Shown: positions 10,138 to 47,263 of the stretch, in pieces
Numbering within the stretch: the first letter of the stretch is position 1
Layout: the number at the start of each line of letters is the position of its first letter
Assembly (NCBI RefSeq): GCF_988242995.1
Contig: NZ_OZ547043.1
Direction: 5' to 3' (one strand)
DNA length: 64,000 bases
The notes under the pieces: model-generated
Databases searched by the model: none
What the model saw: the letters and a program-made list of their open reading frames with translations, nothing else
What the model was told of the DNA's origin: nothing
Program-made: the position numbers and the translations under genes

Positions 10138-10153
10138 ACGCACACGTTTGCGT
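10138..10153. promoter_or_regulatory. PurR operator (PUR box) upstream of purC
   Basis: Palindrome acgcacacgtttgcgt (reverse complement acgcaaacgtgtgcgt) matching PurR box consensus. Confidence 0.7.
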
Positions 10154-10196
10154 ATCATATCAGAAAAAAGGGCCGGATGACTCCAGCCCTGTATTT

Positions 10197-11231
10197 TTAC
10201 TTGCTAAACGCAGCCTGGAAGACAGCTACCAGCGCGTCGTTCTGACTCTGAGTCAGAGTATGACCTTTCGGATCGATGAACTGTAGGCTGCTGCGGTTAT
10301 CTAAATCGCCAACCTGCAGTTTATAGTCACCGGATGCCAGGCCTGGATCGCTCGCGCCCAGTTCCTGCCAGTCGCTGTCAGACAGCGGCTTGTAAGTTAC
10401 GGCCATGTTACCCTGCGAACGGGTGCTGTCGGTCACTTTCATGCCCACTTTTTCCAGCGCCGCTGGCAGACGTTGCCAAACCACATTGAACGGCCCGCGT
10501 ACGACCAGCATCGGTAAACCGGTGTCATCAGCTGCACTTTGTACGTCCATAGTGGTGGAGGCACGATTTTGCGCAGCGTTCGCGGCGTCAGTGGCAGATT
10601 TATCCAGACCGGCGGAAATAACGTTCATCATCTCCGTGCTGTAACGCTGCATGGAAGCCGCGTCTGCAACCGGTTTGCCCGCCTGTTCCAGGTTCAGCAG
10701 TTTAACCGTAACCGCCTGCTGATAACCCTGCGGCTTAACAGAGATTTGATAACGACCACGATACTGCTCGTCTTCGTCCAGACGGTTCCATTGTACCCAA
10801 TCGGTGGTCAGTGTCTGACCAGCATCATCACGTTGGGTGATGGTGTAGTTTTTCGCCTGCAGCACGCTAACCACCTGCGGCCACAGAGTATTGCCACGAC
10901 CATTTTCCACCAGCAATGAAGCGGTATCGCCCGTGAACTGGGTACGCGCGCCAGAAACCAGTGCCAGCGGCTGGGCTGGTGGACGAATGTCCAGCGCCTT
11001 ACCGACAGCACCACTACCGTTGGTCACCGGGATTGCATAATCACCGGAGGTCACCGGCAAAATCATTCCAGCCGGGGCATGAAGCTCCGCAAGCGGTGCC
11101 GCTTCCAGGTAGGCTTCATCACCACTGACCTGACGCTTATAGCGTGAGTCAGAACTACAGGCAGCGAGTAATAAAACAAGCGAAACACCCGCAACCTTTG
11201 CCAGGCGCGACTTTTGAACAGAGTAAGCCAT
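10197..11231 (-). CDS. bamC: Outer membrane protein assembly lipoprotein BamC (NlpB)
   Basis: ORF 10197..11234; lipobox LLAAC in signal peptide; 344 aa from second Met. Confidence 0.93.
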
Positions 11232-11247
11232 CAAATCTCCCTAAACT

Positions 11248-12126
11248 TTACAGCAAACCGGCATGCTTAAGCGCCGCTCTGACCGTCTCACGACCACTGT
11301 CGGTGATTGGTGTCATTGGCAGGCGCAGCGTATCGGTCGCCACAAGACCCAGTTCCTTACATGCCCATTTCACCGGGATTGGATTGGGTTCGACAAATAG
11401 TTTGTTGTGTAATGGCATCAGACGCTGATTAATAACGCGTGCCTCGGCAAAATGCCCTTCTGCTGCCAGTTTGCACATCTGGGCCATATCACGCGCTGCG
11501 ACGTTAGCCGTAACGGAAATAACCCCATGACCGCCTAATTGCATGAAGTCCAGCGCGCTCGCATCATCGCCGCTCAGCAGAACAAAATCATCTGAAACCA
11601 GCTCTTTGATCTGGTTTACACGCGTTAAGTTCCCTGTTGCCTCTTTGATTCCGATAATATTTTTTACTTTCGCCAGACGGCCCACCGTTTCCGGGAGCAG
11701 ATCGCAGCCAGTACGGGACGGCACATTATACAGAATTTGCGGCAGGTCAGTATGTTCAGCGATGGCTTTGAAATGCTGATACAAACCTTCTTGCGACGGA
11801 CGATTGTAGTAAGGGGTTACCGTCAGGCAGCCGACGATACCACTGTCATTGAAGCGCTGCGTCAGGCTAATGGCTTCCACAGTAGCGTTAGCGCCGGTCC
11901 CGGCAATCACCGGAATGCGCCCGTCAGCCAGCTCCAGCGTCATCATCACCACATCAGCATGTTCGTCATGATTTAAGGTAGCGGACTCGCCAGTGGTGCC
12001 AACAGAAACGATCGCCGAAGTACCGCTGGCGACATGATAATCAATCAGTTTTTTCAAGCTAGCCCGACAGACATTACCTTTTTCATCCATCGGAGTAACA
12101 ATCGCGACAATACTTCCCGTGAACAT
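11248..12126 (-). CDS. dapA: 4-hydroxy-tetrahydrodipicolinate synthase
   Basis: ORF 11248..12144; start at [13 protein letters not shown] (292 aa). Confidence 0.95.
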
Positions 12127-12271
12127 GGGCCATCCTCTGTGCAAACAAGTGTCTCAATGGTACGTTTGGTATGGCATTAAAAGCAAGCAGACAGAACCGT
12201 TCTGATTGTTGTATGCATGTTTTTTTTATGCTTTCCTTAAGAACAACTCACCCCTTAAAGGAATAACCAGT

Positions 12272-12844
12272 TTGACACTGTCATCGCAACATTATCTGGT
12301 GATCACTGCGTTGGGTGCCGATCGCCCTGGAATTGTGAACACCATCACCCGTCATGTCAGTAGTTGCGGCTGTAATATTGAAGACAGTCGCCTGGCGATG
12401 CTGGGAGAAGAGTTCACGTTTATCATGCTGCTTTCCGGTTCATGGAATGCCATTACTCTGATTGAATCAACGTTACCGTTGAAAGGTGCCGAGCTGGATC
12501 TTTTAATCGTGATGAAGCGCACGACGGCGCGTCCGCGTCCGCCAATGCCAGCATCTGTCTGGGTTCAGGTCGATGTGGCAGACTCCCCGCATTTAATTGA
12601 ACGCTTCACAGCACTTTTCGACGCGCATCATATGAACATTGCGGAGCTGGTGTCACGCACGCAACCTGCTGAAAATGAACGGGCTGCGCAGTTGCATATT
12701 CAGATAACCGCCCACAGCCCCGCATCTGCGGACGCAGCAAATATTGAGCAAGCGTTCAAAGCCCTATGTACAGAACTCAATGCACAAGGCAGTATTAACG
12801 TCGTCAATTATTCCCAACATGATGAACAGGATGGAGTTAAGTAA
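12272..12844 (+). CDS. gcvR: Glycine cleavage system transcriptional repressor GcvR; probable TTG start
   Basis: ORF 12206..12844; LTLSSQHYLVITALGADRPGIV matches GcvR N-terminus, start inferred at the TTG codon (190 aa). Confidence 0.85.
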   Translation: MTLSSQHYLVITALGADRPGIVNTITRHVSSCGCNIEDSRLAMLGEEFTFIMLLSGSWNAITLIESTLPLKGAELDLLIVMKRTTARPRPPMPASVWVQVDVADSPHLIERFTALFDAHHMNIAELVSRTQPAENERAAQLHIQITAHSPASADAANIEQAFKALCTELNAQGSINVVNYSQHDEQDGVK

Positions 12845-13314
12845 TGAATCCACTGAAAGCCGGTGATATCGCACCGAAATTTAGCTTGCCGGATCAAGAC
12901 GGAGAACAAGTTAATTTGACCGACTTCCAGGGACAGCGTGTTCTGGTTTATTTCTACCCGAAAGCCATGACCCCCGGCTGTACCGTACAGGCCTGCGGCT
13001 TACGCGATAACATGGATGAGTTGAAAAAAGCGGGCGTTGATGTGCTGGGTATCAGCACCGATAAACCCGAAAAACTCTCCCGTTTTGCGGAAAAAGAGCT
13101 GCTTAACTTTACGCTCCTGTCTGATGAGGACCACCAGGTGTGCGAACAATTCGGCGTCTGGGGTGAAAAGTCCTTCATGGGCAAAACCTACGATGGTATT
13201 CATCGCATCAGCTTCCTGATTGACGCTGATGGCAAAATCGAACATGTCTTTGACGATTTCAAAACCAGCAATCACCACGACGTTGTGCTGAACTGGCTGA
13301 AAGAACACGCCTGA
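12844..13314 (+). CDS. bcp: Peroxiredoxin Bcp (thiol peroxidase)
   Basis: 156-aa ORF with PGCT peroxidatic Cys motif; start overlaps gcvR stop (TAATG). Confidence 0.95.
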   Translation: MNPLKAGDIAPKFSLPDQDGEQVNLTDFQGQRVLVYFYPKAMTPGCTVQACGLRDNMDELKKAGVDVLGISTDKPEKLSRFAEKELLNFTLLSDEDHQVCEQFGVWGEKSFMGKTYDGIHRISFLIDADGKIEHVFDDFKTSNHHDVVLNWLKEHA

Positions 13315-13509
13315 TTACTTTGCTCCATTCCGTGCTGGCTGCGCTTGCGGTCAGCACACCTCACTTCTCGTGATCAAGATCACATTCTCGCTTTCCCCTG
13401 CGACACGGGTGTCGAATTCATTTTTTGCTGAACGTTAATGACCATCATTTTTGTACCGTTCAGAATCCAGTTAATACATAACTTATTGAATATATTAAAT
13501 TAATCAGAC

Positions 13510-13526
13510 TGGCATCCTTTATGCAA
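13510..13526 (+). promoter_or_regulatory. Sigma54 (-24/-12) promoter of the hyf operon
   Basis: tGGcatcctttatGCaa: GG and GC elements 10 nt apart, ~40 nt upstream of hyfA start; hyfR (sigma54 activator) encoded at the operon end. Confidence 0.7.
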
Positions 13527-13566
13527 TATGAAATGCAATGTTTCATATCATTTTCAAGGAGCCGAC

Positions 13567-14184
13567 ATGAACCGCTTTGTGGTGGCCGAACCACTGTGGT
13601 GTACAGGATGTAATACCTGTCTCGCTGCCTGTTCGGACGTGCATAAAACGCAAGGTTTACAGCAACACCCGCGCCTGGCCCTGGCGAAGACGTCAACACT
13701 CACTGCCCCTGTCGTGTGTCATCACTGTGAGGAAGCCCCTTGCCTGCAGGTCTGCCCGGTCAATGCCATCTCCCAGAGGGATGATGCGATCCAACTCAAC
13801 GAAAGCCTTTGTATTGGCTGCAAGCTTTGCGCCGTGGTCTGCCCATTTGGCGCAATCAGCGCTACAGGAAGCCGTCCGGTGAATGCCCCTGCGCAATATG
13901 TTTTTCAGTCTGAGGGCTCACTCAAAGACGGAGAAGTAAACGCGCCGACCCAACATGCTTTGCTGCGCTGGGAACCGGGTGTCCAGACCGTCGCGGTGAA
14001 ATGCGACCTGTGTGATTTCTTGCCAGGAGGTCCGGCCTGCGTTCGCGCTTGCCCGAATCAGGCGTTACGGCTGATCACCGACGATAGCCTGCAACGTCAG
14101 ATGAAAGAAAAACAGCGCCTTGCCGCAAGCTGGTTTGCCAATGGCGGGGAGGATCCCCTTTCCCTCACTCAGGAGCAACGCTAA
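13567..14184 (+). CDS. hyfA: Hydrogenase-4 component A, 4Fe-4S ferredoxin-type
   Basis: ORF 13528..14184; start at MNRFVVAEP (205 aa); multiple CxxCxxCxxxCP clusters. Confidence 0.93.
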   Translation: MNRFVVAEPLWCTGCNTCLAACSDVHKTQGLQQHPRLALAKTSTLTAPVVCHHCEEAPCLQVCPVNAISQRDDAIQLNESLCIGCKLCAVVCPFGAISATGSRPVNAPAQYVFQSEGSLKDGEVNAPTQHALLRWEPGVQTVAVKCDLCDFLPGGPACVRACPNQALRLITDDSLQRQMKEKQRLAASWFANGGEDPLSLTQEQR

Positions 14185-16202
14185 TGGATGCCCTGCAATT
14201 ATTAACCTGGTCGCTGATCCTCTATCTGTTTGCCAGTCTGGCTTCGCTGTTTTTACTCGGTCTGGACAGACTGGCTATTAAGCTTTCCGGCATCACATCG
14301 CTGGTGGGTGGCGTGATTGGCATCATCAGCGGAATTACGCAATTACATGCAGGCGTAACTTTAGTCGCCCGTTTTGCCACGCCTTTTGACTTTGCCGATT
14401 TAACCCTGCGAATGGATAGCCTCTCGGCATTTATGGTGCTGGTTTTCTCCTTGCTGGTGGTGGTTTGTTCGCTCTATTCATTGACTTATATGCGCGAATA
14501 CGAGGGCAAAGGCGCGGCGGCGATGGGCTTCTTTATGAATCTTTTCATCGCATCGATGGTTGCCCTGCTGGTGATGGACAACGCTTTTTGGTTCATCGTG
14601 CTGTTTGAAATGATGTCGCTGTCTTCCTGGTTTCTGGTCATTGCCAGGCAGGATAAAACGTCAATCAACGCTGGCATGCTCTACTTTTTTATCGCCCACG
14701 CCGGATCGGTGCTGATTATGATCGCCTTCTTGCTGATGTGGCGCGAAAGCGGCAGCCTCGATTTTGCCAGTTTCCGCACGCTTTCACTTTCTCCGGGGCT
14801 GGCGTCGGCGGTGTTCCTGCTGGCCTTCTTCGGTTTTGGCGCGAAAGCCGGGATGATGCCGTTGCACAGCTGGTTGCCACGCGCTCACCCTGCCGCACCA
14901 TCGCACGCTTCGGCGTTGATGTCTGGCGTAATGGTCAAAATCGGTATTTTCGGCATCCTGAAAGTAGCGATGGACCTGCTGGCGCAAACGGGTTTGCCGC
15001 TGTGGTGGGGCATTCTGGTGATGGCGATCGGCGCAATCTCCGCGCTCCTGGGCGTGCTGTATGCGCTGGCGGAACAGGATATCAAACGGCTGCTGGCCTG
15101 GAGTACCGTCGAAAACGTCGGCATTATTTTGCTGGCGGTCGGTGTGGCGATGGTCGGTCTGTCACTGCACGACCCGCTGCTCACCGTTGTTGGACTGCTC
15201 GGCGCGCTGTTTCATCTGCTCAACCATGCGCTGTTCAAAGGGCTGCTGTTTCTCGGCGCGGGCGCGATTATTTCGCGTTTGCATACCCACGACATGGAAA
15301 AAATGGGGGCACTGGCAAAACGGATGCCGTGGACAGCCGCAGCATGCCTGATTGGTTGCCTCGCGATATCAGCCATTCCTCCGCTGAATGGTTTTATCAG
15401 CGAATGGTACACCTGGCAGTCGCTGTTCTCACTAAGTCGTGTGGAAGCCGTAGCGCTACAACTTGCGGGTCCTATTGCTATGGTGATGCTGGCAGTCACT
15501 GGTGGGCTGGCAGTAATGTGCTTCGTCAAAATGTACGGTATTACTTTCTGTGGAGCGCCGCGCAGTACACACGCTGAAGAGGCACAGGAAGTGCCAAATA
15601 CGATGATCGTCGCCATGCTACTGCTCGCGGCACTCTGCGTATTCATTGCGCTTAGTGCCAGTTGGCTAGCACCGAAGATAATGCACATTGCCCATGCGTT
15701 TACCAATACCCCTCCCGTCACTGTCGCCAGCGGAATAGCACTTGTACCCGGCACGTTTCATACACGGGTCACTCCCTCATTACTGTTGCTGTTACTACTG
15801 GCAATGCCTTTGCTGCCTGGCCTTTACTGGCTATGGTGTCGTTCGCGCCGCGCAGCGTTTCGTCGCACAGGAGATGCCTGGGCATGCGGCTACGGCTGGG
15901 AAAATGCGATGGCCCCGTCAGGCAATGGCGTGATGCAGCCGCTGCGTGTGGTCTTTTGTGCGCTATTTCGTCTACGACAACAGCTCGACCCTACGCTGAG
16001 GCTGAACAAAGGTCTTGCGCACGTCACCGCCAGGGCTCAGAGCACAGAACCCTTCTGGGATGAGCGGGTGATCCGCCCCATCGTGAGCGCCACCCAACGG
16101 CTGGCCAAAGAAGTACAGCATCTGCAAAGCGGCGACTTTCGTCTCTATTGCCTGTATGTGGTTGCCGCACTGGTTGTGCTGCTAATCGCTATTGCCGTCT
16201 AA
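14184..16202 (+). CDS. hyfB: Hydrogenase-4 membrane subunit B (NuoL/MrpA-like antiporter subunit)
   Basis: 672-aa polytopic membrane ORF. Confidence 0.93.
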   Translation: MDALQLLTWSLILYLFASLASLFLLGLDRLAIKLSGITSLVGGVIGIISGITQLHAGVTLVARFATPFDFADLTLRMDSLSAFMVLVFSLLVVVCSLYSLTYMREYEGKGAAAMGFFMNLFIASMVALLVMDNAFWFIVLFEMMSLSSWFLVIARQDKTSINAGMLYFFIAHAGSVLIMIAFLLMWRESGSLDFASFRTLSLSPGLASAVFLLAFFGFGAKAGMMPLHSWLPRAHPAAPSHASALMSGVMVKIGIFGILKVAMDLLAQTGLPLWWGILVMAIGAISALLGVLYALAEQDIKRLLAWSTVENVGIILLAVGVAMVGLSLHDPLLTVVGLLGALFHLLNHALFKGLLFLGAGAIISRLHTHDMEKMGALAKRMPWTAAACLIGCLAISAIPPLNGFISEWYTWQSLFSLSRVEAVALQLAGPIAMVMLAVTGGLAVMCFVKMYGITFCGAPRSTHAEEAQEVPNTMIVAMLLLAALCVFIALSASWLAPKIMHIAHAFTNTPPVTVASGIALVPGTFHTRVTPSLLLLLLLAMPLLPGLYWLWCRSRRAAFRRTGDAWACGYGWENAMAPSGNGVMQPLRVVFCALFRLRQQLDPTLRLNKGLAHVTARAQSTEPFWDERVIRPIVSATQRLAKEVQHLQSGDFRLYCLYVVAALVVLLIAIAV

Positions 16203-16212
16203 GGAAATCACC

Positions 16213-17160
16213 ATGAGACAAACTCTTTGCGACGGATATCTGATCATTTTTGCGTTAGCACAGGCCGTGATTCTGCTGGTGCTAACCCCGCTTTTTACGG
16301 GGATTTCCCGGCAGATACGCGCGCGAATGCACTCCCGTCGCGGACCGGGGATCTGGCAGGATTATCGCGATATCCACAAACTGTTTAAACGCCAGGAAGT
16401 TGCGCCGACATCTTCAGGTCTGATGTTCCGCCTGATGCCGTGGGTATTAATCAGCAGCATGCTGGTGCTGGCGATGGCCCTACCACTATTTATTACCGTT
16501 TCCCCTTTTGCGGGCGGCGGCGATCTGATCACCCTTATCTATCTTCTTGCCCTGTTTCGTTTTTTCTTTGCTCTTTCAGGGCTGGATACCGGAAGCCCGT
16601 TTGCGGGAGTCGGTGCCAGTCGCGAGTTGACGCTCGGCATTCTGGTCGAACCCATGCTCATTCTCTCAATGCTGGTATTGGCGCTGATAGCGGATTCCAC
16701 GCATATCGAGATGATCAGCAAGACGCTGGCGACGGGCTGGAACTCGCCGCTAACCACCGTACTGGCGTTACTGGCCTGTGGTTTTGCCTGCTTCATTGAG
16801 ATGGGAAAAATTCCCTTTGATGTTGCTGAAGCAGAACAGGAATTACAGGAAGGCCCGCTAACCGAATATTCCGGTGCCGGGCTGGCGCTAGCGAAATGGG
16901 GGCTGGGGCTGAAACAGGTCGTGATGGCAGCACTGTTTGTGGCCCTGTTTCTGCCCTTTGGGCGCGCGCAAGAACTTTCTCTCGCCTGCCTGCTGACTTC
17001 ACTTGTCGTTACGCTGCTCAAGGTTTTGCTGATTTTTGTACTGGCCTCAATCGCAGAAAACACGCTGGCACGCGGGCGTTTTTTACTCATTCACCATGTG
17101 ACCTGGCTTGGCTTCAGCCTTGCTGCGCTTGCATGGGTCTTCTGGTTAACCGGTCTGTAA
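16213..17160 (+). CDS. hyfC: Hydrogenase-4 membrane subunit C (NuoH-like)
   Basis: ORF 16192..17160; start at MRQTLCDGY (315 aa). Confidence 0.9.
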   Translation: MRQTLCDGYLIIFALAQAVILLVLTPLFTGISRQIRARMHSRRGPGIWQDYRDIHKLFKRQEVAPTSSGLMFRLMPWVLISSMLVLAMALPLFITVSPFAGGGDLITLIYLLALFRFFFALSGLDTGSPFAGVGASRELTLGILVEPMLILSMLVLALIADSTHIEMISKTLATGWNSPLTTVLALLACGFACFIEMGKIPFDVAEAEQELQEGPLTEYSGAGLALAKWGLGLKQVVMAALFVALFLPFGRAQELSLACLLTSLVVTLLKVLLIFVLASIAENTLARGRFLLIHHVTWLGFSLAALAWVFWLTGL

Positions 17161-17176
17161 GGAGCACTGACGGAAT

Positions 17177-18616
17177 ATGGAAAATCTTGCTCTGACGACG
17201 TTAATGCTGCCTTTTATCGGCGCACTGGTCGTTTCGTTTTCGCCACAACGTCGGGCCGCCGAATGGGGGGTTTTGTTCGCCGCGCTGACCACGCTGTGCA
17301 TGTTGTCACTGATCTCCGCGTTTTATCAGGCCGATAAAGTTGCCGTCACGTTGACGTTGGTCAACGTGGGGGATGTGGCGTTGTTTGGCCTGGTCATTGA
17401 TCGCGTGAGTACGCTGATTCTGTTTGTGGTGGTGTTTCTCGGTTTGCTGGTCACGATCTACTCCACGGGTTATCTGACGGATAAAAATCGCGAACACCCG
17501 CATAACGGCACGAATCGTTATTACGCATTTTTGCTGGTGTTTATCGGCGCGATGGCGGGACTGGTACTCTCTTCGACGCTGCTCGGTCAGTTGTTGTTTT
17601 TTGAAATTACGGGCGGCTGCTCCTGGGCGTTGATCAGTTATTACCAGAGCGATAAAGCGCAGCGTTCGGCACTAAAAGCGTTGCTTATTACCCATATCGG
17701 TTCGTTGGGGTTGTATCTTGCCGCCGCCACGCTGTTTTTGCAGACCGGAACGTTTGCGCTTAGCGCGATGAGCGAGTTACACGGCGACGCACGTTATCTG
17801 GTTTATGGCGGCATCCTGTTTGCCGCGTGGGGGAAATCGGCCCAGCTACCGATGCAAGCGTGGCTACCGGATGCAATGGAAGCGCCAACACCGATCAGCG
17901 CCTATCTCCACGCCGCATCGATGGTGAAAGTGGGCGTTTACATTTTTGCCCGTGCCATTATCGACGGCGGCAATATCCCGCATGTGATTGGCGGCGTTGG
18001 CATGGTTATGGCACTGGTCACCATTCTTTATGGCTTCCTGATGTATTTGCCACAGCAGGATATGAAGCGGTTGCTGGCCTGGTCGACCATCACTCAACTT
18101 GGCTGGATGTTTTTCGGCTTGTCGCTCTCCATCTTCGGCTCGCGGCTGGCGCTGGAGGGTAGCATCGCTTACATCGTCAACCACGCGTTCGCTAAAAGCC
18201 TGTTTTTCCTTGTAGCAGGTGCGCTGAGTTACAGCTGCGGCACGCGCTTGTTGCCGCGTCTGCGTGGCGTATTGCACACCCTGCCGTTGCCAGGCGTGGG
18301 TTTCTGCGTGGCAGCGCTGGCAATTACCGGCGTGCCGCCGTTCAACGGCTTCTTCAGTAAATTCCCGCTGTTTGCTGCCGGTTTTGCGTTGTCAGTGGAG
18401 TACTGGATCCTGCTGCCCGCCATGATTCTGCTGATGATTGAATCGGTCGCCAGTTTCGCCTGGTTTATTCGCTGGTTTGGTCGCGTCGTGCCTGGCAAAC
18501 CTAGCGAGGCCGTCGCCGATGCCGCTCCGCTGCCAGGATCAATGCGCCTGGTGTTGATTGTACTGATTGTGATGTCGCTGATTTCCAGCGTAATCGCCGC
18601 GACCTGGTTGCAGTAA
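17177..18616 (+). CDS. hyfD: Hydrogenase-4 membrane subunit D (NuoM/N-like)
   Basis: 479-aa polytopic membrane ORF. Confidence 0.92.
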   Translation: MENLALTTLMLPFIGALVVSFSPQRRAAEWGVLFAALTTLCMLSLISAFYQADKVAVTLTLVNVGDVALFGLVIDRVSTLILFVVVFLGLLVTIYSTGYLTDKNREHPHNGTNRYYAFLLVFIGAMAGLVLSSTLLGQLLFFEITGGCSWALISYYQSDKAQRSALKALLITHIGSLGLYLAAATLFLQTGTFALSAMSELHGDARYLVYGGILFAAWGKSAQLPMQAWLPDAMEAPTPISAYLHAASMVKVGVYIFARAIIDGGNIPHVIGGVGMVMALVTILYGFLMYLPQQDMKRLLAWSTITQLGWMFFGLSLSIFGSRLALEGSIAYIVNHAFAKSLFFLVAGALSYSCGTRLLPRLRGVLHTLPLPGVGFCVAALAITGVPPFNGFFSKFPLFAAGFALSVEYWILLPAMILLMIESVASFAWFIRWFGRVVPGKPSEAVADAAPLPGSMRLVLIVLIVMSLISSVIAATWLQ

Positions 18617-18627
18617 GGAGATGATGA

Positions 18628-19278
18628 ATGACCGGTTCTATGATCGTAAATAATCTGGCAGGACTGATGATGCTGACATCGCTGTTTGTGATTAGCGTCA
18701 AAAGCTATCGCCTGTCATGCGGATTTTACGCCTGCCAGTCACTGGTGCTGGTGTCTATTTTCGCCACCCTCTCGTGCCTGTTCGCCGCAGAGCAACTGCT
18801 GATCTGGTCCGCCAGCGCCTTTATCACCAAAGTGCTGCTGGTGCCGTTAATCATGACTTACGCTGCACGAAATATTCCCCAGAACATCCCGGAAAAAGCG
18901 TTATTCGGTCCGGCAATGATGACACTGCTCGCGGCGTTAATTGTCCTGCTTTGCGCATTTGTCGTTCAGCCCGTGAAGCTACCGATGGCTACCGGGCTGA
19001 AACCGGCGCTGGCGGTGGCGTTAGGTCATTTTCTGCTTGGCCTGCTGTGCATTGTCAGCCAGCGCAATATCCTGCGGCAAATCTTTGGTTACTGCCTGCT
19101 GGAAAACGGCTCCCATCTGGTGCTGTCGCTTCTAGCCTGGCGTGCACCGGAACTGGTGGAAATTGGTATCGCTACCGACGCCATCTTCGCCGTCATTGTA
19201 ATGGTGTTACTGGCAAGAAAAATATGGCGTACCCACGGCACGCTGGACGTGAACAACTTGACCGCGCTGAAGGGATAA
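18628..19278 (+). CDS. hyfE: Hydrogenase-4 membrane subunit E
   Basis: 216-aa membrane ORF. Confidence 0.92.
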
Positions 19279-19282
19279 TGAG

Positions 19283-22568: not shown

Positions 22569-22577
22569 GGACAGAAA

Positions 22578-24284: not shown

Positions 24285-24313
24285 GAAGGATTTCTCATTA
24301 ATAAGGACTGTTG

Positions 24314-27232: not shown

Positions 27233-28294
27233 TTATTCTTGCGCGATTTGCCCATCGGGCCAGGCGTGAATCACGGCTTTGATCAGCGTCGCCAATGGAA
27301 TGGCGAAGAATACGCCCCAGAATCCCCACAAACCACCGAAGATCACCACCGATAAAATAATCACCAGCGGATGCAGGTTAACCGCTTCGGAGAACAACAC
27401 CGGCACTAGCAGGTTGCCGTCCAGCGCCTGAATAATCAGATACACCGCGAAGCAGCTCCAGAATTCCGTGCCAGCACCAAACTGGAATAGCGCCACGCCA
27501 ATCACCGGAATGGTCACCACAAATGCGCCAATGTACGGAATAAGAACCGAGAAGCCGACCAGCACCGCCAGCAGCAGCGAATAGTTCAGCCCGAAGAGTA
27601 AGAACCCCAGCCATGTGGCGATCCCCACCACGATCATCTCCAGCACTTTGCCGCGGATATAGTTGGTGATTTGTTGATTCATCTCCTTCCACACCTGTCC
27701 TGCCAGTCCACGGTTACGTGGCAGAACCCGGCGAACGGCGCTCAGCATCTGCTCTTTGTCTTTCAGCAGGAAGAAGACCATCAATGGTACCAGCACCAGA
27801 TAGACGGCAATGGTCAGCAAACCGACCAGCGAGGCGAGGGAAATTTTCACCACCGAATCGCCCATGGTCAGCATCCGACTGCGCATATTTTCGGCCATTG
27901 CATCAATAATGCCCGCATCCATCAACGCCGGATAGCGGCGCGGCAACGTGGCGGCAAAGTCAGAAAGCTTATTGAGCATCCCCGGCATATCGCGAATTAA
28001 GTAGATGCCCTGCTGCCAGGCGATAGGCAATACCACGAACGCCATCAGTAGCAATATACCGACGAAAACCACCAATACAATCGACGTCGCCCAGCGGCGG
28101 GAGCAGCCAATAGATTGCAGGCGCACGGTTGGCCATTCCAGCAAATAGGCCAGCACAATAGCCACCAGCAACGGAGCAAGCAGGCCACTAAAGAAAAAGA
28201 TAATGCCAAATCCGGCAACTAAAATAACCAGCAAGGCAATCGCTTCCGGGTCGCTAAAACGGCGGCGATACCATTGCATCAACATTTCGAGCAT
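27233..28294 (-). CDS. perM: AI-2E/PerM-family permease YfgO
   Basis: 353-aa polytopic membrane ORF. Confidence 0.9.
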   Translation of the reverse strand: MLEMLMQWYRRRFSDPEAIALLVILVAGFGIIFFFSGLLAPLLVAIVLAYLLEWPTVRLQSIGCSRRWATSIVLVVFVGILLLMAFVVLPIAWQQGIYLIRDMPGMLNKLSDFAATLPRRYPALMDAGIIDAMAENMRSRMLTMGDSVVKISLASLVGLLTIAVYLVLVPLMVFFLLKDKEQMLSAVRRVLPRNRGLAGQVWKEMNQQITNYIRGKVLEMIVVGIATWLGFLLFGLNYSLLLAVLVGFSVLIPYIGAFVVTIPVIGVALFQFGAGTEFWSCFAVYLIIQALDGNLLVPVLFSEAVNLHPLVIILSVVIFGGLWGFWGVFFAIPLATLIKAVIHAWPDGQIAQE

Positions 28295-30472: not shown

Positions 30473-30487
30473 CAATAAACACCTTAT

Positions 30488-31189
30488 CTACAACTTCAGA
30501 ATTTCTTTCACAAACGGAATGGTCAGCTTACGTTGCGCGGTAATCGACGCACGATCCAACTGATCCAACGTCATAAATAACGTGCGCATTTCTCTGTCGA
30601 GCCGCTTCAGCAAGAAACGCCCCACATCTTCCGGCAGTTCAAAACCACGCAAACGCGCGCGTAACTGTAGCGCCTGCAACTTATCTTCATCAGAAAGTGG
30701 CTGCAATTTGTAGATCTGCCCCCAGTCGAGACGCGACGCGAGATCCGGTAATCCAAGATTCAACTGCCGCGGTGGACGATCGCCGGTGATTAACAACCGT
30801 GTTTTGCCCGATTCCAGAATTCGATTGTAGAGATCGAAAATCGCCATCTCCCACAACTCATCGCCTGCAATACACTCAATGTTGTCGATACAGACCAGCG
30901 ACAAATGCTCCATACCGTCGAGCACTTCCGGAACAAACCAGGTGCGTTTATCCAGCGGGACATAGCCCACCGCATCGCCACGCTGCGACAATTCCGCGCA
31001 AGCCGCGTGCAACAGATGGCTGCGCCCCGCGCCTTCGCGTGCCCAGAGATAGATGTAACCGCTATGTTCCTGACGCAGCACGTTTTGCAGCGCGGCCAGT
31101 AAAGAGGAGTTATCCCCCGGCCAGAAACTTGCAAAGGTTTCGTCGTCAGGAAGATAAAGTGGCAAAGAGAGCTGTGCCGGTGTGTTCAG
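30488..31189 (-). CDS. hda: DnaA regulatory inactivator Hda; start placed at internal CTG
   Basis: ORF 30488..31234 begins at GTG; Hda N-terminus (L)[18 protein letters not shown] maps to the CTG codon at 31189..31187, consistent with Hda being reported to initiate at CUG (233 aa). Confidence 0.85.
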
Positions 31190-31283: not shown

Positions 31284-32573
31284 TTATTTGTCTGTTATAT
31301 CCGCGTCTTCTGCGTCCAGCACCACTTCTTCAGGGCGCAGCACACTAATCAGTTTGAAGATCAAACTTAAGCCGATACCGACGATGGTCGCCAGCGCCAT
31401 ACCTTTCAGCTCCGCCGCGCCGATGTTTACCTTCGCGCCACTGACACCGATGATCAAAATCACGGAAGTCAGGATCAGGTTCTGTGCTTTGTTGTAATCC
31501 ACTTTCGATTCGATCAAAACACGAATACCGGAAGCACCGATGACACCATAAAGCAGCAGCGAAACGCCGCCCATCACCGGCAATGGGATCATCTGGATAG
31601 CAGCAGCCAGTTTACCGACGCAGGAAAGCAGGATAGCGAAAATCGCTGCCCCGCCGATAACCCAGGTACTGTAAACACGGGTGATCGCCATCACGCCAAT
31701 GTTTTCCCCGTAGGTGGTATTTGGCGTGGAACCAAAGAAGCCGGAGATCACGGTCGACAAGCCGTTAGCAAACATCGAACGGTGCAGACCTGGATCGCGC
31801 AGCAGATCTTTTTTGACGATATTAGCCGTTACCACCAGGTGCCCTACGTGTTCGGCAATAACCACTAACGCCGCTGGCAGAATAGTCAGAATGGCAAACC
31901 ACTCGAAGCGCGGCGTATAGAGAGTTGGCAGCGCAAACCAGTGAGCATTAATAATCGGCGTGGTATCGACAATTCCCATTGCGAAAGAGAGCGCGTAGCC
32001 CACCAGCACGCCAATTAAAATCGGGATAATTGCCAGGAAACCACGAAACAGCACGGAACCTAAAACCGTAACCGCCAGCGTGGTAATGGAGATGATGATG
32101 GTTTTGGAGTCTGGAGTTTGCCCTTCAGCCGGGAGTAAACCTGCCATACCGGCAGCTACGCCCGCCAGCTCCAGACCGATGACGGCAACGATTGCGCCCA
32201 TTGCCGCAGGTGGAAACAGCACGTCCAGCCAGCCGGTCCCCGCTTTCTTCACGATAAAAGAAACCAGGCAGAACAGCACGCCGCAGATAATAAAGCCGCC
32301 CAGCGCGACTTCATACCCTAACGGCAACAGTAACAATACCGGTGAAATAAAGGCAAAGCTGGAACCAAGATAAGCCGGGATTTTCCCTTTACAGATGAAG
32401 AGATACAGCAGCGTTCCTATACCGTTAAATAACAGTACAGTCGCCGGGTTAATATGAAATAAGACGGGCACCAGGACGGTTGCACCAAACATGGCGAACA
32501 AATGTTGCAAACTAAGCGGGATTGTCTGTAAAAGTGGCGGTCTTTCACTCACCCCGATAGCACGGCGCGTCAT
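31284..32573 (-). CDS. uraA: Uracil permease (NCS2 family)
   Basis: ORF 31284..32615; start at [14 protein letters not shown] (429 aa). Confidence 0.93.
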
Positions 32574-33529: not shown

Positions 33530-33547
33530 CTCGCAAACGTTTGCTTT
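33530..33547. promoter_or_regulatory. PurR operator (PUR box) of purMN
   Basis: tcgcaaacgtttgcttt, near-perfect PUR box ~65 nt upstream of purM start. Confidence 0.8.
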
Positions 33548-33591
33548 CCCTGTTAGAATTGCGCCGAATTTTATTTTTCTACCGCAAGTAA

Positions 33592-34646
<1,055 letters not shown>

Positions 34647-34647
<1 letters not shown>

Positions 34648-35456: not shown

Positions 35457-39069
<3,613 letters not shown>

Positions 39070-39107
39070 TGCTTTGCGGGCCGACGAGAAATGTCGGCCC
39101 GCATTAT

Positions 39108-41351: not shown

Positions 41352-41702
41352 AGATGCTCAGCAGAATCCCCCACATCCTGAAGGAGGTGTATTCAGACAG
41401 GCATCCCACCTGACTTCGAATGATGATTATTCATCACTATAGAGAGCATTGATTCTAAGTGTCATATGAAAGTTCCAATTGATATATATCAAACAAAATA
41501 ACCCTGATTAATGAATTATTACGTTTATCATGTTAATTCATCATTATTACATCATCATTGTAAATAATTAAATTAACTTCCATAACATTAAAATATGTAT
41601 CCACTGACGCTTTTTTACATAACGAAGAATTGACCATTTTGTCCTGTTGTGCCTTAATGTAAGTACCGTCCACAGCGTGGGACATACTTCAAGGAACCTT
41701 TT

Positions 41703-41894
41703 GTGAGTCAGGCAACCAGTATGCGAAAACGACACCGATTTAACAGTCGCATGACCCGTATCGTACTGCTCATCAGCTTTATCTTCTTCTTTGGCCGTTT
41801 TATCTACTCGTCCGTCGGTGCATGGCAGCACCATCAGAGCAAAAAAGAAGCTCAGCAATCCACACTCTCCGTCGAATCACCGGTACAACGTTAG
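41703..41894 (+). CDS. yfgG: Small membrane protein YfgG; GTG start
   Basis: 63-aa ORF in AT-rich region, one TM helix. Confidence 0.8.
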   Translation: MSQATSMRKRHRFNSRMTRIVLLISFIFFFGRFIYSSVGAWQHHQSKKEAQQSTLSVESPVQR

Positions 41895-42204
41895 CGGTTA
41901 CCTTCTCCACTTTCACAGAACATAACGGCACCTCGCTGTCGGATGCTTTTGCTCTTTGGGATTATCAAAGCGGCAGATATTCTTTCATCTTAAATTTTAC
42001 GTCTTTGTCCTGACTGATGTTTATCCTGTTTGGCTGCGAAATAAATATAAAATTAATACATATGTTTTAATGATGTATTTTTATAAATTATTTCCCACAT
42101 GAATTTTAATAAATTTAATCTATTCCTTTATACGCAATACATTTACTTTCCTCTTTTGATGATCTTAAATATCTTATTTTTCGTAATGTGTATAACAAGG
42201 AATA

Positions 42205-42723
42205 GTGATGAAATTTAAAAAATGTCTTCTGCCTGTGGCAATGTTAGCGTCATTCACTCTGGCAGGATGCCAGTCAAATGCTGATGATCATGCCGCCGAT
42301 GTTTATCAAACCGATCAACTGAATACCAAACAAGAAACTAAAACCGTTAATATTATTTCCATTCTTCCCGCAAAAGTTGCCGTAGACAACTCCCAAAATA
42401 AACGAAACGCACAAGCCTTCGGCGCGCTTATTGGTGCAGTCGCTGGCGGTGTAATCGGCCACAACGTGGGGTCTGGCAGCAATTCCGGAACGACGGCAGG
42501 TGCAGTTGGCGGCGGAGCTGTTGGCGCGGCAGCAGGTTCTATGGTGAATGATAAAACCTTAGTGGAAGGTGTTTCTCTAACGTATAAGGAAGGCACCAAA
42601 GTGTATACCTCCACCCAGGTGGGTAAAGAGTGCCAGTTTACGACAGGTTTAGCCGTTGTTATTACCACGACGTATAACGAAACGCGTATTCAGCCAAATA
42701 CCAAATGTCCTGAAAAGAGCTAA
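42205..42723 (+). CDS. yfgH: Outer-membrane lipoprotein YfgH (glycine-zipper)
   Basis: 172-aa ORF; lipobox LAGC; Gly-rich GxxxG zipper segment. Confidence 0.88.
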   Translation: MMKFKKCLLPVAMLASFTLAGCQSNADDHAADVYQTDQLNTKQETKTVNIISILPAKVAVDNSQNKRNAQAFGALIGAVAGGVIGHNVGSGSNSGTTAGAVGGGAVGAAAGSMVNDKTLVEGVSLTYKEGTKVYTSTQVGKECQFTTGLAVVITTTYNETRIQPNTKCPEKS

Positions 42724-42738
42724 TAATCAGGAGGAGTC

Positions 42739-43278
42739 ATGAAGAAAGTTTTTCTTTGCGCCATCTTAGCCTCCTTAAGCTATCCGGCTATCGCCTCATC
42801 ATTGCAGGATCAACTCTCTGCTGTCGCAGAAGCGGAACAGCAAGGTAAAAATGAAGAGCAAAGGCAGCATGACGAATGGGTCGCGGAGCGCAACAGGGAA
42901 ATCCAGCAAGAGAAGCAACGTCGCGCAAATGCCCAGGCCGCCGCTAATAAAAGAGCGGCAACGGCAGCGGCAAATAAGAAAGCTCGTCAGGATAAACTGG
43001 ACGCCGAAGCCACTGCGGACAAAAAACGCGATCAAAGTTATGAAGATGAGCTACGCAGCTTAGAGATTCAGAAACAAAAACTGGCGCTGGCGAAAGAAGA
43101 AACCCGCGTTAAGCGCGAAAACGAATTTATCGATCAGGAACTGAAGCACAAAGCTGCGCAAACCGATGCGGTGCAATCTGAAGCTGACGCCAACAGAAAT
43201 ATGACTGAAGGCGGTCGCGATCTGATGAAAAGCGTGGGCAAAGCAGAAGAGAACAAATCGGACAGCTGGTTTAATTAA
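42739..43278 (+). CDS. yfgI: Periplasmic coiled-coil protein YfgI
   Basis: 179-aa ORF with signal peptide and K/E/Q/A-rich low-complexity region. Confidence 0.88.
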   Translation: MKKVFLCAILASLSYPAIASSLQDQLSAVAEAEQQGKNEEQRQHDEWVAERNREIQQEKQRRANAQAAANKRAATAAANKKARQDKLDAEATADKKRDQSYEDELRSLEIQKQKLALAKEETRVKRENEFIDQELKHKAAQTDAVQSEADANRNMTEGGRDLMKSVGKAEENKSDSWFN

Positions 43279-43325
43279 TCGATGTTAGTAACTTCAAGCC
43301 TATGATTCTTGAAGATAATAAATAT

Positions 43326-43349
43326 CCTCCGGCATAGCCGGAGGTTTTT
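43326..43349 (+). terminator. Hairpin + T-run; yfgI terminator, or possibly an IS200 right-end structure
   Basis: cctccggc-atag-gccggagg followed by ttttt. Confidence 0.6.
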
Positions 43350-43425
43350 CAAATGCGCCTGTAAGGCTCTGTTACCAGCCGCGCCCTAACAGGCGCATAC
43401 GATCTGACATTTGCATTCAACTTCG

Positions 43426-43884
43426 TTACTTACGGCCCGTAAACGGGCTGCCCGGATATGGAATCGATAACTGCTCCCCCATTTTATCCTCTTCAAGCTG
43501 GTGCTTTATGTAGTCACGTATCTTCGCCGTGTTCTTACCCACCGTATCGACATAGTACCCTCGGCACCAGAACTCCCTGTTTCTGTATTTGAATTTCAAA
43601 TCCCCAAACTGCTCGTAAAGCATCAGACTGCTTTTCCCTTTCAGATATCCCATAAAGCCGGATACGCTCATTTTGGGTGGGATTTCCACAAGCATATGGA
43701 TATGATCTGCGCAGCACTCTGCTTCCAGAATCCGTACGCTTTTCCACTCACACAGCTTTCTCAAAATACTGCCTATCGCCCTACGCTTCTCTCCGTAAAA
43801 CGCCAGTCTTCGGTATTTCGGCGCAAAAACTATGTGATATTTACAGTTCCAGCGGGTGTGCGCTAAGCTCTTTTCGTCCCCCAT
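43426..43884 (-). CDS. tnpA: IS200-type Y1 transposase TnpA
   Basis: ORF 43426..43935; start at MGDEKSLAHTRWNCKYHIVFAPKYRR (152 aa); HIHMLVEIPP HUH motif and catalytic Tyr region RGYYVDTVG. Confidence 0.9.
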   Translation of the reverse strand: MGDEKSLAHTRWNCKYHIVFAPKYRRLAFYGEKRRAIGSILRKLCEWKSVRILEAECCADHIHMLVEIPPKMSVSGFMGYLKGKSSLMLYEQFGDLKFKYRNREFWCRGYYVDTVGKNTAKIRDYIKHQLEEDKMGEQLSIPYPGSPFTGRK

Positions 43885-44023
43885 TGGGACCCCCTTTTGA
43901 TTTCTTGTTTGACACTTGCAGTTGCCAGACCGCAAGGTGTTTTAACAAATCAAAAGGGGTTTTAATAACTGGCTCAAAGCTGAAAGCTTTCCGGAACCCC
44001 CAGCCTAGCTGGGGGTTTTCTGT

Positions 44024-44060
44024 GCACAAAAAACCCTCTGTAGTAACAGAGGGTTTTGTT
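44024..44060 (-). terminator. Rho-independent terminator of guaBA
   Basis: Minus-strand hairpin aaccctctgttactacagagggtt followed by TTTTTT, ~25 nt after guaA stop. Confidence 0.75.
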
Positions 44061-44081
44061 CATTCATAGTGCAGGGTCAAA

Positions 44082-45659
44082 TCATTCCCACTCAATGGTA
44101 GCTGGCGGCTTGCCGCTGATGTCATACACCACGCGGGAAATACCGTTCACTTCATTGATAATGCGGTTGGAAACGCGACCGAGGAAGTCATACGGCAGGT
44201 GCGCCCAGTGTGCGGTCATAAAGTCGATGGTTTCGACAGCACGCAGAGAAACAACCCAGTCATACTTACGACCATCGCCCATTACGCCAACGGAACGTAC
44301 CGGCAGGAAGACGGTGAATGCCTGGCTGACTTTGTCGTACAGGTCCGCTTTACGCAGTTCTTCAATGAAGATGGCGTCAGCACGGCGCAGCAGGTCACAA
44401 TACTCTTTCTTCACTTCACCCAGAACACGAACGCCAAGGCCTGGTCCCGGGAACGGGTGACGGTACAGCATGTCGTACGGCAGGCCCAGCTCCAGACCAA
44501 TCTTACGCACTTCGTCTTTGAACAGCTCTTTCAGCGGTTCAACCAGGCCCATCTTCATCTCTTTCGGCAGGCCGCCCACGTTGTGGTGAGATTTGATGAC
44601 GTGTGCTTTACCGGTTGCAGACGCCGCAGATTCGATAACGTCAGGGTAGATAGTACCCTGCGCCAGCCACTTCACGTCTTCCAGTTTCAGCGCTTCTTCA
44701 TCGAATACTTCAACGAAAACGCGCCCGATGATTTTACGTTTTGCTTCCGGATCGTTTTCGCCAGCCAGCGCTGACAGGAAGCGATCTTCTGCCGGAACGT
44801 GAACAATGTTCAGACCAAAGTGATCGCCAAACATATCCAGAACCTGCTCTGCTTCGTTGAGACGCAGCAGGCCGTTGTCGACGAATACGCAAGTCAGGTT
44901 TTTACCGATAGCGCGGTGCAGCAGCATTGCGGTTACGGAGGAATCCACACCACCAGAGAGGCCGAGGATGACTTTATCGTCGCCTACCTGCTCGCGGATG
45001 CGAGCTACAGCATCGTCGATAATTTTCGCTGGCGTCCACAGGGCTTCACACTGGCAGATATCACGCACAAAACGCTCCAGCATGCGCATACCCTGGCGGG
45101 TGTGAGTCACTTCCGGATGGAACTGTACACCATAGAAGCGTTTTTCTTCGTTAGCCATAATGGCAAACGGGCAGCTTTCGGTGCTGGCTACGGTGACGAA
45201 GTCGGACGGGATAGCGGTAACTTTATCGCCGTGGCTCATCCAGACATCGAGCAGCGGTTTACCGTCTGCGGTCAGAGCATCTTCGATACCGCGAACCAGT
45301 GCGCTGTCGTTTACGACTTCAACCTGCGCGTAGCCAAATTCACGTTCGTTAGAGGCTTCAACGTGACCGCCCAACTGCATCGCCATGGTCTGCATGCCAT
45401 AGCAAACGCCGAATACCGGTACGCCTGCTTCAAAAACATACTGCGGCGCACGCGGGCTGTTTTCTTCAGTGGTACTTTCCGGGCCGCCGGAAAGAATAAT
45501 GCCGCTTGGGTTGAAGTCACGAATTTGTGCTTCTGTCACATCCCACGCCCACAGTTCGCAGTAAACACCCAGCTCACGCACGCGGCGCGCAACCAGTTGA
45601 GTGTACTGAGAACCGAAGTCCAGAATGAGGATGCGATGCTTATGAATGTTTTCCGTCAT
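44082..45659 (-). CDS. guaA: GMP synthase (glutamine-hydrolysing)
   Basis: 525-aa ORF recognised as GuaA. Confidence 0.96.
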
Positions 45660-45727
45660 TGACGCTTATTCCGAGGCAAGTGAAACAGATAATATAAATC
45701 GCCCGACATGAAGTCGGGCGAAGAGAA

Positions 45728-47194
45728 TCAGGAGCCCAGACGGTAGTTCGGGGACTCTTTAGTAATGGTCACGTCGTGAACGTGGCTTTCCTGAATGCCC
45801 GCACCGCTGATACGTACAAACTCCGCTTTAGTACGCAGTTCGTCGATAGTACCACAGCCGGTCAGCCCCATACAGGAGCGCAGGCCGCCCATCTGCTGGT
45901 GAATGATCTCTTTCAGGCGACCTTTATAGGCCACGCGACCTTCGATACCTTCCGGCACCAGTTTGTCGGCAGCGTTGTCGCTCTGGAAGTAACGGTCAGA
46001 AGAACCTTTGGACATCGCGCCCAGGGAACCCATACCACGGTAAGATTTGTAAGAACGGCCCTGGTAGAGTTCGATTTCACCCGGAGATTCTTCAGTACCT
46101 GCCAGCATGGAACCCACCATCACCGCGCTTGCGCCTGCGGCGATAGCTTTGGCGATATCGCCTGAGAAACGGATACCGCCGTCAGCGATAACCGGAATAC
46201 CGGTGCCTTCCAGGGCTTCTACTGCATCAGCAACGGCGGTGATCTGTGGAACACCGACGCCAGTCACGATACGAGTCGTACAGATAGAGCCAGGGCCGAT
46301 ACCGACTTTAACCGCGCTGCAACCAGCTTCTGCCAGAGCGCGTGCCCCCGCAGCTGTTGCCACGTTGCCGCCGATGATTTGCAGATCCGGATATTTAGCA
46401 CGAGTTTCACGGATACGCTGCAGAACGCCTTCAGAGTGACCGTGAGAGGAGTCGATCAGCAGAACGTCAACGCCTGCGGCAACCAGCGCGTCAACACGCT
46501 CTTCGTTACCCGCACCCGCGCCAACCGCTGCACCAACACGCAGACGGCCTTGCTCGTCTTTACAGGCGTTCGGTTTACGTTCTGCTTTCTGGAAATCTTT
46601 CACGGTGATCATGCCGATCAGGTGGAATTCGTCATCAACCACCAGCGCTTTTTCAACGCGTTTTTCGTGCATTTTTGCCAGCACAACTTCACGGGCTTCA
46701 CCTTCACGCACGGTGACCAGACGTTCTTTCGGCGTCATGTAAACGCTAACCGGCTGGCTCAGGTCGGTAACAAAACGTACGTCACGACCGGTGATAATAC
46801 CCACCAGTTCGTTTTCTTCGGTAACGACCGGGTAGCCCGCAAAGCCGTTACGCTCGGTCAGTTCTTTCACTTCGCGCAGCGTCGTGGTTGGCAGAACAGT
46901 CTGCGGGTCAGTCACCACGCCAGATTCGTGTTTTTTCACACGGCGAACTTCTTCCGCCTGGCGTTCAATGGACATATTTTTGTGGATAAAGCCGATACCG
47001 CCTTCCTGAGCCAGAGCAATAGCCAGGCGCGCTTCCGTTACGGTATCCATTGCTGCGGAAAGCATAGGGATATTCAGACGAATAGTTTTCGTCAGCTGGG
47101 TGCTGAGGTCAGCAGTATTCGGCAGAACGGTAGAATGTGCAGGAACGAGGAGAACGTCGTCAAACGTCAGAGCTTCTTTAGCGATACGTAGCAT
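45728..47194 (-). CDS. guaB: IMP dehydrogenase
   Basis: ORF 45728..47263; start at [16 protein letters not shown] (488 aa). Confidence 0.95.
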
Positions 47195-47246
47195 GGGCAA
47201 TATCTCGACCAGAGTGGTTAATAAATATTGCCGCGGCATTATACAG

Positions 47247-47263
47247 AGCGTAACCGATTGCAT
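47247..47263. promoter_or_regulatory. Putative PurR box in guaB promoter/leader region
   Basis: Minus-strand atgcaatcggttacgct, a PUR-box-like imperfect palindrome ~55 nt upstream of guaB start. Confidence 0.55.

Follow-up and report, generated by a model that had tools for sequence, protein, structure and literature searches.

Three PUR boxes in a segment of the E. coli chromosome

The DNA analysed here, 64 kb in length and referred to as the window, is a segment of the Escherichia coli chromosome running from acrD to bamB. Sequences of the PUR box type are present upstream of three purine operons. The purC box lies at 10138..10153 on the minus strand (ACGCACACGTTTGCGT, which reads ACGCAAACGTGTGCGT on the purC strand), the purMN box at 33531..33546 on the plus strand (TCGCAAACGTTTGCTT) and the guaBA box at 47248..47263 on the minus strand (GCGTAACCGATTGCAT, or ATGCAATCGGTTACGC on the guaB strand). 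Each is an imperfect dyad of 16 bp with CpG at its centre (positions 8-9), and compared with the perfect palindrome ACGCAAACGTTTGCGT there is one mismatch in purC, two in purM and five in guaB. A preliminary description of this DNA had reported PUR-box-like sequences at these places, calling the purC and purM boxes near-consensus and the guaB box weaker, and it was accurate in both respects. Its coordinates were exact for purC; the range given for purM (33530-33547) was one base too long on each side, and that for guaB (47247-47263) contained the right box together with one surplus base from the adjacent DnaA-box-like sequence.

The boxes were scored with a weight matrix trained on 24 PurR ChIP-chip motif instances, all from outside the window, and chance expectations were obtained by exact calculation and from 300 dinucleotide shuffles of the 64-kb window. 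The training sites themselves score between 9.9 and 24.3 under this matrix, with a median of 18.0. All three boxes fall inside this range (19.8 for purC, 18.5 for purM and 13.5 for guaB), the first two at or above the median, and among the ~128,000 positions of the window they rank 1, 2 and 4 with the symmetrised matrix and 1, 3 and 4 with the matrix as given. The p-values per site are 1e-7, 3e-7 and 8e-6, respectively, all of them smaller than the FIMO cut-off of p<1e-4 per site used by Cho et al. (PMC3159470). By exact calculation 0.007 matches are expected per 64 kb at the purC score and 0.02 at the purM score; taken together, the estimates for these two boxes are 0.007-0.11 chance matches per 64 kb, which puts both far beyond chance on their letters alone.

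Identity with sites bound by PurR in K-12

All three 16-mers are letter-identical to PurR motifs found by ChIP-chip in E. coli K-12 (Cho et al. 2011, PMC3159470, Table 1), where they lie at 2,595,794-809 (purC), 2,619,140-155 (purMN) and 2,632,146-161 (guaBA), in front of the same genes and equally placed with respect to the mapped start sites. Around the boxes, differences from K-12 concern only the flanks, for example a G/A polymorphism in the stem of the bamC terminator, and there are none inside the boxes. The reported log2 enrichments are 2.08 with adenine and 1.52 without for purC, 2.08 and 0.98 for purM-purN, and 0.84 with adenine and none without for guaB-guaA (PMC3159470). The matrix scores follow this order, and operator quality decreases from purC to purMN to guaBA, in line with the reported occupancy in vivo. 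Repression of the three operons by PurR is known from K-12 (He et al. 1990 and Meng et al. 1990, as cited in other work), and it is from the K-12 literature that binding and repression at the boxes are taken.

From the letter-identity with bound K-12 motifs, the matrix ranks, the position in the promoters, the conservation and the literature, we conclude with high confidence that the boxes are the PurR operators, already known, of the E. coli purC, purMN and guaBA promoters. The shared PurR regulation of the three operons proposed in the preliminary description is thus borne out by ChIP-chip identity, promoter positions and published repression. It should be noted that purR is absent from the window; in K-12 it is about 0.86 Mb away, with a motif of its own at 1,735,808 (PMC3159470).

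A dyad with a central CG is common to the operators of the LacI family, and a review reports an action of RbsR on purine genes, so that another repressor of this family recognising a similar palindrome, for example RbsR or CytR, might be thought to bind the boxes. This is very improbable: it was ChIP-chip of PurR itself that recovered exactly these sequences, with an occupancy that responds to adenine, in keeping with hypoxanthine as the corepressor (PMC3159470), and a matrix built from PurR sites only places purC and purM at or above its training median. The significance of the PurR operators is mostly one of annotation, since they are textbook members of the purine regulon and the backbone of this strain carries standard regulation; what is gained is the fixing of exact coordinates and promoter geometry, and the recognition that the guaB site is not callable by sequence statistics alone.

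Position of the boxes in the promoters

A simple sigma-70 consensus scan of the window missed all three pur/gua promoters owing to the weakness of their -35 hexamers, and promoter positions were taken instead from start sites published for K-12: 2,595,803 for purC (163-nt leader), 2,619,175 for purM (44-nt leader) and 2,632,129 for guaB (37-nt leader) (Kim et al. 2012, PMC3415461, supplementary table). With these start sites transferred to the window, all three boxes lie on core promoters.

In purC the start site is 10147, inside the box, which extends from -6 to +10. Directly abutting the box on its upstream side is TGATATGAT (10154..10162, minus strand), probably an extended -10 element to judge from its sequence, and just upstream of the promoter stands the intrinsic terminator hairpin of bamC (10169..10190, minus strand). 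Within the leader there is a palindromic element (10030..10090, minus strand) that is putatively REP-like, going by the REP consensus.

The purM box covers -35 to -20 and is followed by the -10 hexamer TAGAAT (33554-33559) and the start site G at 33566, a block (33554..33566, plus strand) assigned from the sequence and the K-12 start site; the start codon is a GTG at 33610. At guaB the box covers -32 to -17, taking up most of the spacer and the final 3 nt of the -35 hexamer. The core promoter (47231..47266, minus strand) was assigned from the sequence, the K-12 start site and PMC2885671, with the -35 hexamer TAGATG at 47266-47261, the -10 hexamer TATAAT at 47243-47238 and the start site G at 47231, and the ATG of guaB is at 47194. 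An extended guaB open reading frame (45728-47263) starts at an ATG inside the box; as this ATG is upstream of the start site, it is not a genuine start codon and the extension was rejected. Overlapping the -10 hexamer and abutting the PUR box is a DnaA-box-like sequence, TTATACAGA (47239..47247, plus strand), which has 8/9 matches to TTATNCACA. Binding of DnaA to a sequence that overlaps the core promoter of guaB is described in the literature (PMC2885671), and TTATACAGA is a likely candidate for the exact site.

According to the mechanism that we propose, PurR, the LacI-family purine repressor with hypoxanthine or guanine as corepressor, would bind each 16-bp dyad as a corepressor-loaded dimer, using the central CpG in recognition. 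At purC the dyad straddles the start site and adjoins the -10 element, and at purMN and guaBA it covers the -35 region and the spacer. Since every box is placed on a core promoter, we infer a steric mechanism in which bound PurR would exclude RNA polymerase and reduce initiation. At guaBA, PurR would be one weak input beside an UP element, CRP, FIS, DnaA and growth-rate control.

Conservation of the purMN and purC boxes

Of some 5,400 E. coli genomes, nearly all have kept the boxes, which are also conserved in other Enterobacteriaceae. For purM, the box was found in 66/66 loci from more than 20 genera of Enterobacteriaceae, with 14 of its 16 columns invariant against a flank mean of 0.64; the block from the -10 hexamer to the start site does not vary across genera either, and the 44-mer around the box is identical in 5400 of the 5423 E. 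coli genomes. The purC box is present in 110/116 purC loci from metagenomes, every column being at least 90% conserved compared with 0.4-0.8 in the flanks, and the common polymorphism of the purC region within E. coli falls outside it. At the other 6/116 metagenome loci, which belong to relatives, no box of any kind was found upstream of purC.

The surroundings of the purC box are less constant. The box is separated from the ATG by 169 nt in E. coli-like loci and by 65-90 nt in the others, the ~100 extra nucleotides in E. coli being due to the REP-like element. In the E. coli layout the -10 element TGATATGAT precedes the box, transcription starts inside the box and the REP-containing leader comes after it. 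In several other Enterobacteriaceae the TGATATGAT hexamer is gone, a CATAAT occurs downstream of the box at a distance of 2 nt, and no more than 65-90 nt separate the box from the ATG. With this downstream hexamer as the -10 element, the purC box would sit in the spacer, as it does at purM and guaB. It is conceivable, though we advance the idea only tentatively, that the purC operator stayed in place while the promoter was rebuilt around it; if so, the mode of purC repression differs between genera in spite of an unchanged operator sequence. The purC start site has been mapped experimentally in E. coli only, and the promoters of the other genera were read from sequence.

The guaBA box

The statistics of the guaB box are of another order. 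At its score 0.5 matches are expected per window by exact calculation and 1.0 in the dinucleotide shuffles, 199 of the 300 shuffles reaching it; with a window-wide expectation of about 0.3-1, the box does not surpass the best match that chance would give in 64 kb. The scan with a PurR weight matrix, which the preliminary description had suggested as a check together with a comparison with curated sites, gave a divided answer for guaB, with a p-value below the cut-off per site but a score at chance level over the window, where purC and purM passed on both counts and the comparison succeeded for all three.

One could then suppose that purC and purM are true operators and that the guaB box is a chance resemblance, the small effect of PurR on guaBA being indirect and the box being conserved as the -35 region and spacer of a strong, heavily regulated promoter with DnaA and FIS neighbours. 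Such a view is in agreement with the 0.5-1 matches expected window-wide, with the five mismatches to the palindrome, with an enrichment that is the weakest of 35 ChIP-chip regions and seen with adenine only (PMC3159470), and with the term 'putative' used for this PurR site in the promoter literature (PMC2885671). It has to contend, however, with the fact that the motif lies inside a ChIP-chip region (2,632,091-2,632,533; PMC3159470), and that only ~0.001 matches are expected at this score within the 161 bp between guaB and xseA. What makes the guaB box convincing is thus its location and the outside evidence, not its score in the window.

Conservation bears on the question in both directions. 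The guaB box is present in 22/22 loci, and 5418 of the 5420 E. coli genomes have exactly the same 44-mer there. The guaB-xseA intergenic region is, however, conserved over its whole length (mean 0.87, with the window of the box ranking 40th of 185), so that conservation as such does not single out the box, just as a chance resemblance would predict; it could instead reflect constraints from the promoter, DnaA or FIS. The signal specific to the guaB box is solely in the pattern of substitutions. The variable columns (2, 7, 10 and 13) are all among the five non-consensus positions (hypergeometric 5/1820 = 0.003), none of the 22 loci has lost the central CpG or either of the GCAA/TT.C half-site cores, and no variant scores less than 13.5, though of the 48 single substitutions that are possible 38 would reduce the score. 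This pattern, with substitutions between species that never lower the score, argues against a chance resemblance, which we consider unlikely, and for the guaB box as a PurR operator.

Other matches in the window

A fourth motif reported by ChIP-chip, overlooked in the preliminary description although its list of three sites was correct, lies within codons 16-21 of yfgO/perM (28234..28249, minus strand, CCGGAAGCGATTGCCT). It corresponds to the yfgO/yfgC motif at 2,613,843-858 of K-12, with a log2 enrichment of 1.18 in adenine only (PMC3159470). Its matrix score is weak (13.0) and collapses in other genera, the motif not being conserved. Another intragenic match, in uraA (32182-32197, ACGGCAACGATTGCGC), scores 14.5-18.1 and was judged to be a chance product of the conserved GAIVAV peptide: its synonymous positions are as free as those of the flanking codons (0.75 vs 0.67), its score collapses in many genera, and Table 1 of Cho et al. 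2011 has no ChIP-chip region there (PMC3159470). Selective conservation was not found for either of these two matches. In hda (30647-30662), a match with 3 mismatches and the right half CGCGCGT is at chance level, as is that in hyfD (17744-17759); the match at 41888-41903 (score 11.4) was rejected because about one chance match per window is already expected at a higher score. The window thereby gains one reported weak ChIP-chip motif and loses two tempting intragenic matches.

Comparison with other PurR sites

The purF operator, the site of the PurR-hypoxanthine-DNA crystal structure (Schumacher et al. 1994, as cited in a review), is likewise a dyad of 16 bp with CpG at its centre, and it shares with the boxes described here the GCAAAC half-sites and the overlap with a promoter. 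It belongs to another gene and has another sequence, AAGAAAACGTTTGCGT (PMC3159470), and the guaB box resembles this archetype far less. The intragenic roadblock operators of purB and purR have the same motif but are located inside coding sequence, where they block elongation, whereas the purC, purMN and guaBA sites are promoter-proximal. The PurR and PurBox of Bacillus subtilis and Lactococcus have in common with the present system only the name and the physiological purpose; that PurR is a non-homologous PRPP-binding protein with an unrelated DNA motif and is not relevant to these boxes.

Elsewhere in the window there is strain-specific DNA relative to K-12. In the product of purM, Gly24 had been suspected as an odd residue and proved to be the normal sequence, and D238E is the sole difference from WP_001295474.1.

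PurR boxes of purC, purMN and guaBA

The window is a segment of an E. coli chromosome. In the gene order annotated in a closely related genome (acrD, dapE, tmcA, purC, bamC, dapA, hyf operon, uraA, upp, purMN, ppk, ppx, guaAB, xseA, der, bamB), purC lies at 9271-9984 (minus strand), purM at 33610-34647 (plus strand, GTG start) and guaB at 45728-47194 (minus strand). PUR boxes, read here on the plus strand, were located at 10138-10153 for purC (ACGCACACGTTTGCGT, one mismatch to ACGCAAACGTTTGCGT), at 33531-33546 for purMN (TCGCAAACGTTTGCTT, two mismatches) and at 47248-47263 for guaBA (GCGTAACCGATTGCAT, five mismatches), and the central CG is kept in all three. The preliminary description had recognized the three boxes correctly, although its ranges for purM and guaB were one or two bases too wide.

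A PurR weight matrix was built from 24 motif instances reported by Cho et al. 2011 (PMC3159470, Table 1); since all of them lie outside the window, the test is not circular. The three boxes ranked 1, 2 and 4 among all window positions with the symmetrised (palindrome) matrix, and 1, 3 and 4 with the unsymmetrised one. The scores of purC, purM and guaB are 19.8, 18.5 and 13.5, with exact per-site p-values of 1e-7, 3e-7 and 8e-6 and 0.007, 0.02 and 0.5 sites expected per 64 kb at the respective score. Among 300 dinucleotide-preserving shuffles, 15 attained the purM score and 199 that of guaB. From these p-values and shuffle counts, the purC and purM boxes stand on sequence alone, while the guaB box, taken by itself, is not above window-wide chance. 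It lies, however, between guaB and xseA, in 161 bp of intergenic DNA for which about 0.001 matches of such score are expected, and it is this placement, together with the ChIP-chip, promoter and conservation evidence, that makes it credible.

PurR regions were listed by ChIP-chip in K-12 for purC, purM-purN and guaB-guaA (Cho et al. 2011, PMC3159470), with motifs at K-12 2,595,794-809 (ACGCACACGTTTGCGT), 2,619,140-155 (TCGCAAACGTTTGCTT) and 2,632,146-161 (GCGTAACCGATTGCAT), and each window box is letter-identical to its motif. The log2 enrichment with and without adenine was 2.08/1.52 for purC, 2.08/0.98 for purM and 0.84/none for guaB (Cho et al. 2011, PMC3159470), and the order of enrichment is that of the matrix scores. 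A different protein of the LacI family could in principle occupy such operators, but this is very unlikely, the ChIP having been performed on PurR. The three boxes are the PurR operators previously described for purC, purMN and guaBA, and are not new.

Promoter geometry and repression

The start sites mapped in K-12 by Kim et al. 2012 (PMC3415461) are 2,595,803 for purC (leader 163 nt), 2,619,175 for purM (44 nt) and 2,632,129 for guaB (37 nt), and the upstream sequences printed there terminate exactly at window bases 10147, 33566 and 47231. The boxes accordingly span -6 to +10 at purC, -35 to -20 at purM and -32 to -17 at guaB. The purC box is directly adjoined by TGATATGAT, which we read as a putative extended -10. 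At purM the box takes in the -35 together with most of the spacer, and TAGAAT follows downstream; at guaB it overlaps the final 3 bases of TAGATG as well as the spacer, with TATAAT downstream. This geometry agrees with the published general rule that PurR sites fall on the -35/-10 region, and with the promoter literature on guaB, where the PurR site overlaps the core promoter (PMC2885671). Owing to their weak -35 hexamers, the three promoters all escaped a simple scan for consensus promoters.

PurR, a LacI-family dimer, binds the PUR box when it carries hypoxanthine or guanine, and represses pur genes and guaBA. Its occupancy is raised by addition of adenine (Cho et al. 2011, PMC3159470). Since all three boxes overlap the region that polymerase contacts, bound PurR would block initiation, at purC by covering the start site and at purM and guaB by covering the -35 and spacer. 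The weakest PurR target would be guaBA, on whose promoter an UP element, CRP, FIS and DnaA also act (PMC2885671). The proposal that the three operons are under PurR regulation is supported by ChIP-chip identity, promoter position, conservation and the literature on PurR repression.

A DnaA-box-like TTATACAGA at 47239-47247 lies directly next to the PUR box of guaB, overlapping the -10. Mechanical in-frame extension of the guaB ORF to 45728-47263 reaches an ATG (47261-47263) at the box start, which was rejected as the real start codon because it is upstream of the start site.

Conservation of the operators

Scanning species-representative genomes once with Ppx, 10-kb flanks included, gave 80 Enterobacteriaceae loci. 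Of these, 66 take in the region upstream of purM, and none of the 66 lacks the purM box; across 67 distinct sequences 14 of its 16 columns are invariant, against a mean conservation of 0.64 over the rest of the 200 bp upstream, and the invariance extends from the box across the -10. The guaB box occurs in 22/22 loci reaching guaB, with 12/16 columns invariant, but conservation does not single it out because the whole guaB-xseA intergenic region is highly conserved (0.87). The guaB box could be a chance match preserved by promoter constraints, which we consider unlikely, mainly on the grounds of the ChIP-chip region found there and of the substitution pattern. Variation is confined to four columns (2, 7, 10 and 13), each of them one of the five positions already off-consensus (hypergeometric 5/1820), and no variant scores below the E. 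coli box, although the score would be reduced by 38 of the 48 possible single substitutions. This pattern is more telling than the regional conservation. Within E. coli, the 44-mer with the purM box at its centre is the same in 5400/5423 genomes, and that of guaB in 5418/5420.

For purC, a degenerate DNA pattern for the N-terminus retrieved 120 metagenome loci, 116 with enough upstream sequence, and a high-scoring box was found in 110. Its columns are at least 90% conserved in these loci, while flanks fall to 40-80%. No PUR box was found up to 300 nt upstream in the other six (L110, L127, L131, L139, L151, L205), which are 82-94% identical to E. coli over the gene's initial 120 nt; some lineages may have lost the operator. 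Three of the six have a common repeat-like insertion upstream. In E. coli, the 601-bp stretch around the box shows 95-100% identity in all but one of 5,426 complete genomes, and the purC 44-mer has one common polymorphism, C/T at 10131, outside the box.

In the purC leader and promoter (9985-10162), the distance from box to ATG is 169 nt in E. coli versus 65-90 nt in other Enterobacteriaceae; the E. coli leader contains what we take to be a REP-like element (about 10030-10090). In other genera the TATGAT upstream of the box is gone, and CATAAT lies 2 nt downstream of it. These differences in hexamers and leader length suggest that the promoter may have turned over around a fixed operator, the only mildly new part of this analysis. 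In E. coli ETEC1701 (locus L084) an IS200 aligning to window ~10165, directly upstream of the purC -10, replaces the bamC terminator region, yet box and -10 are intact.

Other PurR-like matches

The list of three sites in the preliminary description holds as far as it goes, but it lacks a fourth reported ChIP-chip motif, yfgO/yfgC (CCGGAAGCGATTGCCT, 28234-28249, minus strand; Cho et al. 2011, PMC3159470). The motif, with a matrix score of 13.0, is not intergenic but falls in codons 16-21 of yfgO/perM. It shows no excess conservation at synonymous sites, and its score is lost in other genera; since it is not conserved outside E. coli, PurR binding there is probably incidental. The second or third best matrix match in the window, ACGGCAACGATTGCGC at 32182-32197 inside uraA, differs from the yieG operator by a single base. 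Chance probably accounts for this match: Cho et al. 2011 (PMC3159470, Table 1) list no ChIP-chip region there, synonymous sites are unconstrained and the score collapses in other genera. Further matches, in hda and in hyfD, do not rise above chance.

Strain-variable and RNA features

Between xseA and yfgJ/der lies a strain-variable island (48792-60194, minus strand) with a 2680-aa adhesion-domain ORF, a 325-aa ORF and the intimin-like inverse autotransporter SinH. It is missing from strain 266917_2, and presumably resembles the Salmonella CS54 (sinH/ratA) region. Coverage of 43200-61000 reaches 80% or more in only 934 of 5,426 E. coli genomes. Just downstream of guaA, Rfam places the Hfq-binding sRNA STnc490 (43894-44017, minus strand, 146 bits), in a yfgI-guaA spacer that varies among strains (804 bp here versus 95 bp in strain 266917_2). 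The REP-derived RNA naRNA4/CssrE was also found with Rfam, at 5347-5424 (plus strand, 86 bits).
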